Counted from the first letter of the stretch, positions 32,002 to 35,920 are shown. The stretch is DNA of 64,000 nt from an uncultured Gammaproteobacteria bacterium (GCA_947259395.1 CAMYMN010000005.1:1494-65493), one strand, 5' to 3'. A program made the numbers and translations. Notes: generated by a model from the sequence alone, not told the origin.

Positions 32002-33306
32002 TTAGCCCACACCTTTTTTCTGCGTCTTGAACACACGTTCTGACTGGATGATTAGAAAACTAATTGCAATCGCAGCGATCAAAATCGCCGCCGCAGTGAT
32101 GACGTTGCTCAAAAGCTCCGGGGCCAACAGCAACGTCACCCCCAGCCCGAGCATCATGAGACCCGATACCAACTTCAGGATTCTTCCTCCTCTCTCACCG
32201 AGCTTCCTTGATCCCAACGTCAGGCTGAAGACAACAACCATGATTGCGAGCGGAGTTATGTAAATGAGGTTATAAACTAACAAATAAAGATAATAAGTTT
32301 CCGGGGTCAAGTCATTTAAAGTGAGCGCGCGCGTGTAGATCATTGGAAAACCGGCGGTGCACAATAATTCATAGGTATTGGCGGCAATAGCCAGGGTTAC
32401 GGTGCCCACTAACATCGGCGCTATGCTCCGGGCTTGTGTCAAATCCCGTATGCGCTTGAATAAGCCGGGTTTGGCAGCCTCCGGAATCGTCAGCGAAACG
32501 CCCCTTTGAAACCAGAAATAATCTTTTATGTTCACGACTGCCATTGACAAGGCGATAAGGCCGGCAACGGTTGTTATGACGCGTAGTTCCCCGATCCACA
32601 GGAACACATTCAACCATGCAGCCATGAAGGCAAAATAGATCAGCCCTGAAAATAAAACGAAAGTACCGCCGATGAACAGCATCCGCGATCGGCTCTTGGC
32701 ATGTACCAGCAAGCTCAACAAAAACAGTAACACGAAAAATGCGCAAGGATTGAAGGCGTCCATCCCGGCGATAACCAGTGTCAAGACGGGCAAAGACAAG
32801 CCGGTGATATCGATGTCACCGAAAAAAGGTGCATGAATCGAACTTGGATGTTCCACAGTAGGCGCCAACCGTCCACCGTTCAATAACTTCTGCGCATGGG
32901 CCGACCGGCATTGCTTTAACGTGCGAATCAAGGCCGCGCCCGTGGTCTCCTCATTACCATAGCCAGTCATAAGTGTTTTACAAAAGATAAATCCCGGCAC
33001 CGATGAGACCTCTGTTCCCAAGTATTTTGCCAGCGCCACATAGAGCTGAACGTTATCGCGATGTTTGGTCAGCTCGTAACTGTGAACCGCAAGCCACGGA
33101 AACTTTTTCGGCAGCGCTTCAACAAACGGCTGCGCACGCACGCAGTGCGGACAGCTAAGCGACCAGAAAAAATGTAAATGGATCACGACTTGTTGCTGCT
33201 CATTGAATGTATACCAGAATGAATCATCAAAAGTTTGACTGGACTGTACCGATCCCGGCAAAGACGATAACGCGGTGATAAAGAAAAGAGTCGTCCAAAA
33301 TCTCAT
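32002..33306 (-). CDS. Fusion of a secreted thioredoxin-fold domain (CPHC) with a polytopic membrane domain (DsbD/CcdA-like suspected)
   Basis: Signal peptide. FFWSLSCPHCVRAQPFVE is a thioredoxin-type CxxC. The membrane part begins AGMDAFNPCAFFVLLFLLSLL and has at least 6 further helices. Confidence 0.65.
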   Translation of the reverse strand: MRFWTTLFFITALSSLPGSVQSSQTFDDSFWYTFNEQQQVVIHLHFFWSLSCPHCVRAQPFVEALPKKFPWLAVHSYELTKHRDNVQLYVALAKYLGTEVSSVPGFIFCKTLMTGYGNEETTGAALIRTLKQCRSAHAQKLLNGGRLAPTVEHPSSIHAPFFGDIDITGLSLPVLTLVIAGMDAFNPCAFFVLLFLLSLLVHAKSRSRMLFIGGTFVLFSGLIYFAFMAAWLNVFLWIGELRVITTVAGLIALSMAVVNIKDYFWFQRGVSLTIPEAAKPGLFKRIRDLTQARSIAPMLVGTVTLAIAANTYELLCTAGFPMIYTRALTLNDLTPETYYLYLLVYNLIYITPLAIMVVVFSLTLGSRKLGERGGRILKLVSGLMMLGLGVTLLLAPELLSNVITAAAILIAAIAISFLIIQSERVFKTQKKGVG

Positions 33307-33626: not shown

Positions 33627-33992
33627 ATGCAGCCGCAGATCCGACGCTTTAACGATCACACCTCTCCCGGGGTGCGCCATTTGGTTGAGTGCGCGGAGAT
33701 CCTGCAGGTTTCCGAGGCCGATATCTTCCGCCTCGCCTACCGGCACTGGTATGAACGGGAGCTCAACGAGCCCCTGCTCAACGAACTGGTCGCCGGTTAC
33801 TTATTGCGTCAGGAACTGCCGGGTTGGGTACGCAGTTACTGCGTGGGGGTCCTCAATCTTGCCGATGTGGGACAGCTCGATCCACGCGATTTTGGCGTTG
33901 AGCGTCCCAGGATGAGGCGGTATTCCGATCATCAGGTTGCATCGCTGTTGACCTTTGGCGGTTTTATTCTCTACTGGCTTTTCTTTGCGTAA
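33627..33992 (+). CDS. Hypothetical protein with C-terminal TM helix
   Basis: An internal ATG at 33627 (MQPQIRRFNDHTSPG...) is the most plausible start. C-terminal hydrophobic LLTFGGFILYWLFFA. No motif recognised. Confidence 0.4.
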   Translation: MQPQIRRFNDHTSPGVRHLVECAEILQVSEADIFRLAYRHWYERELNEPLLNELVAGYLLRQELPGWVRSYCVGVLNLADVGQLDPRDFGVERPRMRRYSDHQVASLLTFGGFILYWLFFA

Positions 33993-34083: not shown

Positions 34084-34317
34084 TTAATCTTCGTTTTCGT
34101 TATTGGATTTTCCGCGCTCACCGGGGAAGTGTTCTATCCGGCGTTCGGTACCGTTAGGGATTGTGCGTTCACCGTCGTCCCACTGGTCGTGGGTCCGGTG
34201 GGAGCCGCAGCATCTCATTCGCCCTTTGAAGCCAGACAACATGCAAAACAGCATCATACCGATACATACCAGCGGGAAGATCCACCAGAGTTCAAGGTAT
34301 TCAATTCCAAGGTTCAT
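34084..34317 (-). CDS. Small membrane protein with a CC pair (77 aa)
   Basis: Strong AGGAGG lies 7 nt before the ATG at 34317. TM helix LELWWIFPLVCIGMMLFCMLSGF, then RMRCCGSH. It lies 53 bp downstream of the AhpD-like gene on the same strand. Confidence 0.6.
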   Translation of the reverse strand: MNLGIEYLELWWIFPLVCIGMMLFCMLSGFKGRMRCCGSHRTHDQWDDGERTIPNGTERRIEHFPGERGKSNNENED

Positions 34318-34373
34318 CACTTACCTCCTTATTCAAATATCTTTTCAATGGTTGTCAGCATCAGAACGACACA

Positions 34374-34862
34374 TCAACCGCAAATTCCGGCTGCTGCTTG
34401 GCGCTGTGGCTGGACCTGTTGAATCTCGTTGCCCGTTTTGACGATCTTCTCCACATGGCTCGCCGCCTTGGCCTTGATAAGCCGTGCGAGCCGTACCACC
34501 GCCTGCAGCTCATCGTCAGTAATCCCGATCGTCGCGGCCACAGCCCGGTGCTTTGCCAAATTAGTCGTGCAGTTCACGGCAAATGCCGCACCGACAGACA
34601 CCAGTTCGGTGAGCCGACGGGTCTTACCGTCGCTGCGCTCATTAACGCCGTGGGCGACGTCGAGTTCACCGAGGCCATAGCTTTCCATGACTTGTTGCGC
34701 GCTCGCACGCACGCTAATGGCATCGGCAATAGCCCGCTGGATTTCAATTTCAGTGGCCTTGGCCTTGCGTACTGCCTTGAGGTGATAGTCTGTGCATGGC
34801 TTGCAACCGGCCACCACTGAAATTGCCACTGCGACCAGCTCTTTTTCCTTTAATGTCATCAT
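34374..34862 (-). CDS. Carboxymuconolactone decarboxylase / AhpD-like family protein
   Basis: AAGGAG lies 9 nt before the ATG at 34862. AhpD-core CxxC motif: ELVAVAISVVAGCKPCTDYHLKA. Confidence 0.85.
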   Translation of the reverse strand: MMTLKEKELVAVAISVVAGCKPCTDYHLKAVRKAKATEIEIQRAIADAISVRASAQQVMESYGLGELDVAHGVNERSDGKTRRLTELVSVGAAFAVNCTTNLAKHRAVAATIGITDDELQAVVRLARLIKAKAASHVEKIVKTGNEIQQVQPQRQAAAGICG

Positions 34863-34918
34863 CGTCTTCAACTCCTTGGTTGTCTTCGAGGATTCCAATA
34901 ACTTTCTTTGTCCTTACC

Positions 34919-34949
34919 TCTTAGACGACGCCGCAACCCAAAGCGTTAC
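34919..34949 (-). promoter_or_regulatory. ECF-type promoter-like motif GTAAC-N17-CGTCTAAGA reading toward the AhpD-like gene
   Basis: The plus strand reads TCTTAGACG (34919-34927), a 17-nt spacer, then GTTAC (34945-34949). On the minus strand this is GTAAC-N17-CGTCTAAGA, identical in both boxes to the motif at 34980-35010. Confidence 0.5.
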
Positions 34950-34979: not shown

Positions 34980-35010
34980 GTAACACTTTTATGGTCAAGT
35001 TCGTCTAAGA
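34980..35010 (+). promoter_or_regulatory. ECF-type promoter-like motif GTAAC-N17-CGTCTAAGA reading toward the Cys-rich peptide / ECF sigma operon
   Basis: GTAAC (34980-34984), a 17-nt spacer, then CGTCTAAGA (35002-35010), about 45 nt upstream of the peptide start codon. Confidence 0.5.
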
Positions 35011-35053
35011 ATCGCAACGTAAACGCCTCAATGACACAGTAAGGAGTATGGTT

Positions 35054-35248
35054 ATGACGACGAAAACTACTCAAGACCTCGGCCGAAGTGCGAAGCCGGA
35101 CCAGGCATCGATTTCAACACCAGAAGAAATCACTGAGACGATGGAAGGATGCTGTTGCGGTCCGATGATGAAACAGATGATGGAAGCCTGCCTGGATAAA
35201 GCCGAGAAGGTTAAAGAGAAGGAAAAAAAAGAGTCCGCCTGTTGTTGA
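35054..35248 (+). CDS. Cys/Met-rich micro-protein (64 aa; 66 aa if the ATG at 35048 is used)
   Basis: TAAGGAG lies 8 nt before the ATG at 35054. Sequence: ...EEITETMEGCCCGPMMKQMMEACLDKAEKVKEKEKKESACC. It ends 42-93 nt before the ECF sigma gene. Confidence 0.55.
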   Translation: MTTKTTQDLGRSAKPDQASISTPEEITETMEGCCCGPMMKQMMEACLDKAEKVKEKEKKESACC

Positions 35249-35341
35249 CTCGCATCAACCGGCCTCGCGCATTGTCCCCCTGACACCGCCATGATAGCCT
35301 GCTTACATAGCGCCACACCTTTGCCGACAACAACAAATTCC

Positions 35342-35920
35342 ATGACTAAAACTACAGCCGAAACGCTGGCCGAGCACCGAGATGCTGTACGGGGTTTCGT
35401 GCTGGGACTTATCGGCGACGAGGCCTTGGCCGAGGATCTGACACAAGAGACCTATGTGCGTGTCCAGCGCGCGGCCGGCTCGTACCGCGGCGAGGCCAAT
35501 GAGCGCACTTGGTTGTGCGCCATTGCCCTAAATTTAGTCCGCGATCACTTCCGCGCTGTCAAACGTGTCCCAGAGTCGAGCTTAGATACCGAAACCAGGC
35601 ACGCGATGATAAATAGTAGTGAGGACGTAGAATTGAGCGCACTCAAGACAGAAATGTCGAGTTGCATCGGTGCCTATCTGACTCAGTTGCCACGTTCTCA
35701 GTACGAAGTGGTGGCGCTCCACGATATGGCCGGCCTCACCCACAAGGAGATTGCCGCCCAGCTCGATATCTCGGTGGCGAATGCACGGGTACTTCTGCAT
35801 CGAGGACGCGCCGCGTTACGGAAGATTTTGGAGGAGCATTGCGTGCTGTCATTGGACAGTGACACCATACCCTGCGAACGCCGGCCTACCTCACAAACAA
35901 CGAGGTCAGGCACCAAATAA
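35342..35920 (+). CDS. ECF-subfamily sigma-70 factor
   Basis: Region 2 (ALAEDLTQETYVRVQRA ... ERTWLCAIALNLVRDHFR) and region 4 HTH (YEVVALHDMAGLTHKEIAAQLDISVANARVLLHRGRAALRK). An alternative upstream ATG is at 35291. Confidence 0.85.
   Translation: MTKTTAETLAEHRDAVRGFVLGLIGDEALAEDLTQETYVRVQRAAGSYRGEANERTWLCAIALNLVRDHFRAVKRVPESSLDTETRHAMINSSEDVELSALKTEMSSCIGAYLTQLPRSQYEVVALHDMAGLTHKEIAAQLDISVANARVLLHRGRAALRKILEEHCVLSLDSDTIPCERRPTSQTTRSGTK

Follow-up and report, generated by a model that had tools for sequence, protein, structure and literature searches.

A Cys/Met-rich micro-protein encoded upstream of a SigZ/CorE-like ECF sigma factor probably helps it to sense or soak up a metal, metalloid or oxidant that seeks thiols

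The window, by which we mean the whole stretch of 64,000 nucleotides analysed here, comes from an uncultured Gammaproteobacteria bacterium (GCA_947259395.1 CAMYMN010000005.1:1494-65493) and carries a micro-gene for a small protein rich in cysteine and methionine, a gene for an ECF sigma factor on the same strand, and a divergent operon on the other. The features of this locus, in coordinates counted from the first nucleotide of the window, are listed here.

34084..34320, minus strand: 78-aa single-TM protein with the stretch ...MRCCGSH..., second gene of the divergent operon
34374..34898, minus strand: AhpD-like (carboxymuconolactone decarboxylase family) protein with CxxC (Pfam CMD, 66.7 bits; NCBIfam ahpD_dom)
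34920..34949, minus strand: second copy, by motif match, of the same ECF-type promoter as at 34980..35009, ahead of the AhpD-like/small membrane protein operon
34980..35009, plus strand: ECF-type promoter GTAAC-N17-CGTCTAAG of the micro-protein/sigma operon, conserved in all four loci of the genus while its flanks diverge
35040..35046, plus strand: Shine-Dalgarno sequence TAAGGAG, by direct reading of the sequence
35054..35248, plus strand: micro-protein gene, 64 aa plus TGA stop, from the ORF and its translation
35271..35303, plus strand: unexplained conserved spacer block ATTGTCC-N17-TAGCCT with ATG 35291, between the micro-gene and the sigma gene
35342..35920, plus strand: ECF sigma factor of 192 aa, SigZ/CorE-like (Pfam Sigma70_r2 and Sigma70_r4_2)

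The original prediction had placed an ORF with a strong TAAGGAG ribosome-binding site at 35048..35248; both are found there, and the peptide sequence that it gave is correct. The length of 64 residues, however, belongs to the second of two possible start codons, since translation from ATG 35048 yields 66 residues and translation from ATG 35054 yields 64, beginning with MTTK. Because TAAGGAG lies 7 nt from ATG 35054 and only 1 nt from ATG 35048, the former is the likely start of the micro-protein gene; the arrangement GGAG-6/7 nt-ATGACGACGAAA recurs in the relatives, which keep both the GGAG and its distance from the MTTK start. The sigma gene begins at ATG 35342, 93 nt past the micro-gene stop, and an alternative in-frame ATG at 35291 would extend the protein by 17 residues. 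Its Pfam Sigma70_r2 and r4_2 matches and its position bear out the claim that an ECF sigma gene lies just 3' of the ORF.

A six-frame search of 41 related genomes finds orthologues of the micro-protein in three of the six other genomes of the genus, with E values of 1e-16 to 1e-25, and nothing better than E = 0.06 in the rest of the 41. Pairwise dN/dS values of 0.11–0.30 for the micro-protein, compared with 0.15–0.25 for the neighbouring sigma factor, show that the ORF is a real gene under purifying selection, which acts along its entire length. Nine clusters of the family emerge when a profile is run against 1.84 billion representative proteins, and 26 emerge from a profile-seeded search of a 90%-identity collection; distant relatives at 33–47% identity retain the motif. 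The hallmark of the family is MTTK...MMxxCxCGPMMxxMMxxC, and the module C-x(0-3)-C-G-x-[MV]-M-x-x-[MI]-x-x-x-C is present in all 27 family sequences examined. In an alignment of 13 sequences, M1, K4, C35, G36, M39 and C46 are invariant, and C33, M29, M30, M38 and M42 come close to it. The window peptide does contain the CCC triplet and the terminal CC that had been singled out initially, but of its Cys residues only C33, C35 and C46 are conserved family-wide; the second Cys of the triplet varies, and so does the C-terminal pair. Neither the micro-protein nor its two-module variants match any Pfam or NCBIfam model, and a profile search of PDB sequences with the micro-protein and a Foldseek comparison of its model with the PDB return no match; in the ESM Atlas the best scores, 0.83–0.84, are to unnamed clusters and fall below the level that counts. 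The earlier impression that the peptide belongs to no named family is thus sustained by Pfam, NCBIfam, PDB and Foldseek alike, and the micro-protein is a member of a new, unannotated small-protein family.

The composition of the family is 12.9% Met, 6.9% Cys and 29% charged residues. Individual representatives contain three to six Cys residues, two of them only three, and with this Cys content the metallothionein-like buffer offered as one possibility in the original prediction is a poor fit. The N-terminus is hydrophilic (KD −0.9 to −2.3 in 26 of 27 representatives), and the micro-protein is predicted to be cytoplasmic because neither a hydrophobic N-terminus or signal peptide nor a TM segment was found in the family. 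The AlphaFold2 model computed with the family alignment comprises a helix at residues 23–31, a CxCGP turn, and a second helix at residues 36–62, with a mean pLDDT of 71. Strictly conserved positions fall on helix faces, M26/M29/M30/C33 on the first helix and M38/M39/M42/M43/C46/L47 on the second, and the predicted build is thus two helices joined by the CxCGP turn, with Met-lined faces and three conserved Cys residues. Versions with two copies of the Cys/Met motif are found in P0012 (101 aa) and in the protein of locus L016 (92 aa), whose gene is located as follows.

L016 3932-4210, plus strand: two-module micro-gene, divergent from its sigma gene, with the promoter TGTATC-N17-CGTCTAC (one mismatch)

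Given these two-module proteins, the motif seems to behave as an autonomous module.

The best NCBIfam models for the sigma factor are SigZ TIGR02959 at 97 bits and NF007215 at 92.4 bits, both scores being below the model cut-offs of 168.65 and 212 bits, respectively, and it is classed as SigZ/CorE-like by these best matches together with published trait descriptions. Solved ECF structures align to positions 10–164, which comprise the sigma2 and sigma4 core only, and leave a tail of residues 165–192 beyond it. The sigma search returned 333 clusters. Three Cys residues, C108 in the linker between sigma2 and sigma4 and C167 and C178 in the C-terminal tail, are invariant in 59 of 59 homologues of 33–83% identity, as they are in a smaller set of seven homologues. 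In the AlphaFold2 model the tail forms a short hairpin of strands 167–169 and 178–180, with a Cys opening each strand, at a low pLDDT of ∼53. In the accounts of group ECF238 given in PMC7826278, members have a short (about 20 aa) Cys-bearing C-terminal extension and, in some cases, a linker Cys, and are switched by metals via such Cys residues without anti-sigma factors, CorE2 being an example of activation by metals (PMC7826278; PMC8999054). The window sigma factor shares with this group both the core of sigma2 and sigma4 only and the short Cys-bearing extension with a linker Cys. CorE-like sigma factors in the narrow sense (former ECF44) are described by a linker CxC motif and a six-Cys domain, or CRD (PMC4937300), whereas the window sigma factor has one linker Cys and two tail Cys. 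By analogy with these proteins the sigma factor looks as though it is switched via its own Cys residues, that is, self-sensing.

The micro-gene lies directly upstream of the sigma gene in the window and in L002 (genome G006), L003 (contig C215 of G002), L004 (G004), L012, L014 and L018, of which L012 belongs to a gammaproteobacterial MAG and L014 and L018 are metagenome contigs with a second micro-protein sequence type. In L016 it is divergent from a SigZ/CorE-like sigma gene, and at every locus seen it stands beside a sigma gene of this type. The check that the original prediction had asked for, conservation of a similar small ORF upstream of orthologous sigma genes, therefore comes out in its favor and extends to more distant sigma factors. 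Of the 41 related genomes, four contain a sigma orthologue (E ≤ 1e-20), and the micro-protein occurs in precisely these four. None of the 399 other genomes scored in an even sample of the class yielded the micro-protein or the sigma factor, and a sample of the phylum contains one distant sigma factor (45% identity) without a micro-gene. In a maximum-likelihood tree of 65 sigma rows, obtained by a quick search with SH-aLRT branch supports only, the partnered sigma factors form two subclades that match the two micro-protein sequence types.

Genome G002 departs from the arrangement of the window. In its locus L003, on contig C215, the micro-gene is intact, and the sigma copy behind it (L003 222-948) has lost four residues in region 2 and is frameshifted; a gene for arsenite methyltransferase (ArsM) comes next. 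Its locus L024, on contig C133, has no micro-gene; it does have an intact sigma gene encoding the Cys triad, ArsM, the two promoters and the genes for the AhpD-like and membrane proteins. In the tree the L024 sigma factor nests inside the partnered clade. Because L024 retains both promoters but lacks a micro-gene, the micro-protein would be an accessory partner, dispensable at a locus with an autoregulated sigma factor, rather than its sole regulator. Since G002 keeps one micro-gene and one intact sigma gene, its content would suit a trans-acting partner as well as an accessory role, and this two-locus picture is that of a MAG in which an assembly error is possible.

The consensus TGTAAC-N17-CGTC(T/C)AAG sits 45–55 nt ahead of the micro-gene start. 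Strict matches precede the micro-gene in the window and in L002, L003, L004, L012, L014, L018 and L019; the promoter of L016 is the one-mismatch version and was read by eye. A second copy on the opposite strand is present in the window, L002, L012, L018, L019 and L024. The strict motif occurs twice in the 4.1-Mb genome (86.6% complete), both times at the window locus. A control with reversed patterns gave one and three matches, so that one match alone would carry little weight; a facing pair that occupies the expected intergenic region and is conserved from locus to locus does carry some. From this placement we infer that the sigma factor recognises its own promoter, TGTAAC-N17-CGTCYAAG, in an autoregulated operon with the micro-gene first. 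ECF238 sigma factors are described as having no conserved target promoter, whereas this motif precedes the operon in every locus with a strict match. Because the promoter copies face only the micro-gene/sigma and AhpD-like operons, the putative regulon can be read as the micro-protein, the sigma factor, the AhpD-like CxxC protein and the small membrane protein with CC, its size being defined by the strict promoter pattern only. The spacer block at 35271–35303 is common to the window, G006, G004 and L012 and is absent from L014 and L018; it may be an internal sigma-70-type promoter for basal sigma expression, or it may mark an alternative sigma start with an N-terminal extension. An attenuator in the spacer between micro-gene and sigma gene was considered and rejected, there being no terminator on the plus strand and an RNA folding z of −1.56, and no significant conserved RNA structure was found in the spacer (consensus energy −2.8 kcal/mol).

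The AhpD-like gene, which probably starts near 34862, is the first gene behind the divergent promoter, and it holds the same position in L002, L012, L024 and, in a short form, L018. By NCBIfam the protein resembles the AhpD domains of ArsM/AhpD and MduS selenoproteins. In L002, L012 and L024 it is followed, as in the window, by the gene for the small membrane protein (78 aa in the window), which has Cys residues inside and just past its helix; the small membrane neighbors, this one included, have no Pfam or NCBIfam match. ArsM directly follows the sigma gene in three of nine loci (L003, L004 and L024), which belong to two genomes. ArsM was also considered as a regulon member in G000, the genome of the window, and rejected, the orthologue there (363 bits against NF008823) lying on another contig without the promoter motif. 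A DGC-domain protein also recurs beside the module, as does a two-TM protein with N-terminal CPMxxMC. The latter, of about 85–108 aa with N-terminal CPMxxM(C/F), is encoded at three loci that otherwise differ (L004 152-421, minus strand; L018 2987-3241, minus strand; L016 4320-4646, plus strand) and has no Pfam or NCBIfam match. Among the conserved neighbors of the micro-gene loci no modifying enzyme, protease or exporter was found, nor a methionine sulfoxide reductase or yedYZ.

The original prediction saw no ZAS-type or membrane anti-sigma factor in the neighborhood and named a canonical anti-sigma factor controlling this sigma factor as one finding that would overturn it. Between 29000 and 41000 the only HxxxCxxC is in a DnaJ zinc finger, and no neighbor matches an anti-sigma family in Pfam or NCBIfam, so that the description of the neighborhood holds and no canonical anti-sigma factor emerged from the Pfam, NCBIfam and HxxxCxxC scans. 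The micro-protein itself contains neither HxxxCxxC nor a Pfam or NCBIfam anti-sigma domain. A 121-aa tail-anchored protein (33630..33992, plus strand) was considered as a hidden anti-sigma factor and rejected, having no family or PDB relative.

Two further proteins of the region are recorded here as observations. The 121-aa protein has a single C-terminal TM segment, is convergent to the AhpD-like operon, and adjoins the module only in the window and in G006. A 434-aa protein (32002-33306, minus strand) carries a signal-like segment at its N-terminus, together with a thioredoxin-type CPHC and, in a polytopic membrane domain, an NPC motif; it matches nothing in Pfam or NCBIfam.

In broad terms the micro-protein probably assists the sigma factor in sensing or soaking up some metal, metalloid or oxidant that seeks thiols. 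As to how it would do so, we tentatively favor a ligand-binding feedback partner, acting as a sink or by hand-over, of a self-sensing sigma factor. The sigma factor would be switched through its own Cys residues by a thiol-seeking ligand, as in CorE/CorE2, the candidates being thiol oxidants and metalloids or soft metals, for example As(III). Once active, it would transcribe the micro-protein, itself, the AhpD-like CxxC protein, the small CC-bearing membrane protein and, in some genomes, arsenite methyltransferase. With its strong ribosome-binding site the micro-protein would be produced in quantity, would bind the same ligand at its own site of three Cys and Met residues, and would feed back on the sigma factor either as a sink, by lowering free ligand, or by handing ligand over to the sigma Cys site. 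It would thereby damp or tune the response and would not be a classical sequestering anti-sigma factor. As to the ligand, the three-Cys site and the adjacency of ArsM point to As(III) or a similar metalloid, the combination of Cys with Met points to Cu(I), and thiol oxidants would also suit the AhpD-like gene. The arsenic link is limited in that it rests on three of nine loci in two genomes, with the ArsM gene of G000 lying elsewhere without the promoter motif.

This feedback partner is favored because the Cys triad of the sigma factor is invariant well beyond the partnered subclades, because of the literature on ECF238 sigma factors, because the gene upstream of corE2 failed as an anti-sigma factor and was nevertheless needed for induction, and because of the L024 locus together with the modular duplication of the motif. 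The constant linkage of the micro-gene to sigma genes of this type and the thiophilic company of an AhpD-like CxxC gene, ArsM and a DGC-domain protein also speak for it. Against it, three conserved Cys residues per chain give a sink low capacity, the conserved helix faces would suit a protein–protein interface equally well, and ECF238 is reported in the supplementary text of PMC7826278 as not autoregulated, so that the partnered clade departs from the description. Complex prediction for the sigma factor with the micro-protein gave a score of 0.02 against a mark of 0.32, with no controls folded, and weighs neither for nor against a contact between them.

Small two-helix anti-sigma factors are known, among them NepR and the cytoplasmic part of CnrY, and NepR is encoded upstream of its sigma gene in an autoregulated operon. 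The micro-protein might be a minimal factor of this kind, in which a Met-lined hairpin clamps the sigma factor and is made to release it by ligation or modification of C33, C35 and C46, and perhaps of Met. Metal, metalloid, electrophile or oxidant would be the trigger, and the freed sigma factor, transcribing both genes, would close a negative feedback loop. This is possible but doubtful. It would account for the position of the micro-gene at the head of an operon that the sigma factor autoregulates from its own promoter, for the perfect co-occurrence of the two genes in the 41 related genomes, and for the predicted helix-turn-helix with its conserved amphipathic Met/Cys stripes, and no other anti-sigma candidate was found. 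The state of G002, with an intact micro-gene beside a decayed sigma gene and an intact paralogue elsewhere, fits a trans-acting anti-sigma factor equally. The same reading leaves the invariance of the sigma Cys triad far outside the partnered subclades to be accommodated, as well as an autoregulated sigma factor in L024 without a micro-gene at the locus and two-module variants that would be odd for a clamp, and the micro-protein has no sequence or profile similarity to anti-sigma families or solved structures. Moreover, in the published accounts of the group ECF238-type sigma factors are reported to need no anti-sigma factor (PMC7826278; PMC8999054), and the upstream partner of corE2 failed an anti-sigma test (PMC4937300). 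Of the thiol- or soft-metal-sensing anti-sigma factor proposed originally, the idea of a partner of this sigma factor that is related to thiols or soft metals stands, whereas the anti-sigma role is weakened by the sigma factor's own Cys triad, by L024 and by the two-module variants.

The remaining alternatives are less probable. The micro-protein could supply its CxC and one further Cys in trans to a split metal(loid) sensor, with the ligand bridging or dissolving the complex of sigma factor and micro-protein; the logic is that CorE-type proteins carry CxC and the six-Cys domain in one chain while the sigma factor of the partnered clade keeps only three Cys residues. We consider this unlikely, and if true it would be a two-protein, ligand-bridged ECF switch without described precedent. 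Similarly improbable is a sacrificial cytoplasmic scavenger, a counterpart of MrpX, whose Met and Cys residues would be oxidised by reactive chlorine, oxygen or electrophiles and recycled by the AhpD-like CxxC protein. The composition (Met 12.9%, Cys 6.9%, charged 29%) and membership in a small ECF regulon alongside an AhpD-like thiol protein are in keeping with such a scavenger, and MrpX, a Met-rich protein of the ECF SigF regulon, is described as being oxidised by hypochlorite (PMC4436054). However, the motif is fixed by position rather than compositional, MrpX is periplasmic and the micro-protein has no signal peptide, the conserved neighbors include no methionine sulfoxide reductase gene, and ArsM adjacency at three loci points to a metalloid over an oxidant. 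The signal peptide, the content of about 20% Met and the YedYZ linkage that would mark an MrpX-like scavenger are all missing from the micro-protein. Least probable of all is that the ORF encodes a modified-peptide (RiPP) precursor, or is a leader whose translation controls the downstream sigma gene, although a small Cys/Met-rich ORF directly upstream of a regulator and a conserved, unexplained spacer block are what either would present. Against both stand purifying selection along the whole micro-protein, the missing modifying enzyme, protease or exporter nearby, and a spacer between ORF and sigma gene that holds neither a terminator nor a conserved RNA structure; in L016 the micro-gene is divergent from the sigma gene and hence cannot serve as a leader. 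The modified peptide precursor suggested initially is likewise disfavored by the conserved neighbors, which are the sigma factor, the AhpD-like protein and small membrane proteins, with no modifying enzyme among them.

Sigma factors of the SigZ/ECF238 type occur widely, and most of their signals are obscure. The published classification, in its description of ECF238, lists neither a conserved partner nor autoregulation (PMC7826278). A fixed partner, a clear self-promoter and a tiny regulon make the locus a compact system for how sigma factors of this type switch and by which ligand, and with the micro-protein comes an unannotated family of small proteins that has a distinctive Cys/Met module.

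Among known systems, NepR of the EcfG/PhyR system and the cytoplasmic domain of CnrY resemble the micro-protein in having ∼60 residues and two helices (predicted here), and in being encoded upstream of the sigma gene in a sigma-driven operon. The micro-protein has no sequence similarity to them and no partner-switching protein, and it has the conserved Cys and Met residues that they lack. The ZAS anti-sigma factors RsrA, ChrR and RslA share with it Cys-based, thiol-reactive sensing next to an ECF sigma factor, a property that is putative for the micro-protein, which in contrast lacks HxxxCxxC and an anti-sigma domain and, at about 60 aa, is roughly half their size. Operon-encoded metallochaperones serve a regulator or a pump, as CopZ does for CopY and ArsD for ArsA, and the S3 arsenite sites of ArsR and ArsD bind As(III) with three Cys residues. 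Like these, the micro-protein is a small soluble three-Cys protein encoded with a regulator, and ArsM adjoins three of its loci; unlike CopZ and ArsD, it has neither the HMA fold nor an ArsD family match, and a sigma factor takes the place of a repressor as the regulator. MrpX, as described in PMC4436054, is also small, Met-rich and highly charged, and its gene sits in a small ECF regulon in which promoter copies are duplicated, but it is periplasmic, lacks a Cys motif of fixed position, and acts together with YedYZ, a methionine sulfoxide reductase. No described counterpart of a Cys/Met micro-protein partner was found in the literature searched.

The closest known system is CorE/CorE2 of Myxococcus xanthus, within ECF238. 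As in the window, these sigma factors have a short Cys-bearing C-terminal extension and a linker Cys, they have no canonical anti-sigma factor, and their context is related to metals or metalloids. The likeness extends to an upstream partner gene that is co-transcribed with corE2 and modulates induction; according to the account in PMC4937300 this gene was tested and is not an anti-sigma factor, yet is needed for induction. Compared with CorE, the window sigma factor has three rather than eight Cys residues, the one in the linker not forming a CxC and the tail having two instead of six; compared with ECF238 as described, its clade has a conserved autoregulatory promoter; and the partner of corE2 is a lipoprotein, whereas here it is a 64-aa protein, predicted to be cytoplasmic, rich in Cys and Met. 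The system described here thus appears to differ from CorE/CorE2 in its three Cys residues, its conserved self-promoter and its dedicated Cys/Met micro-protein partner.
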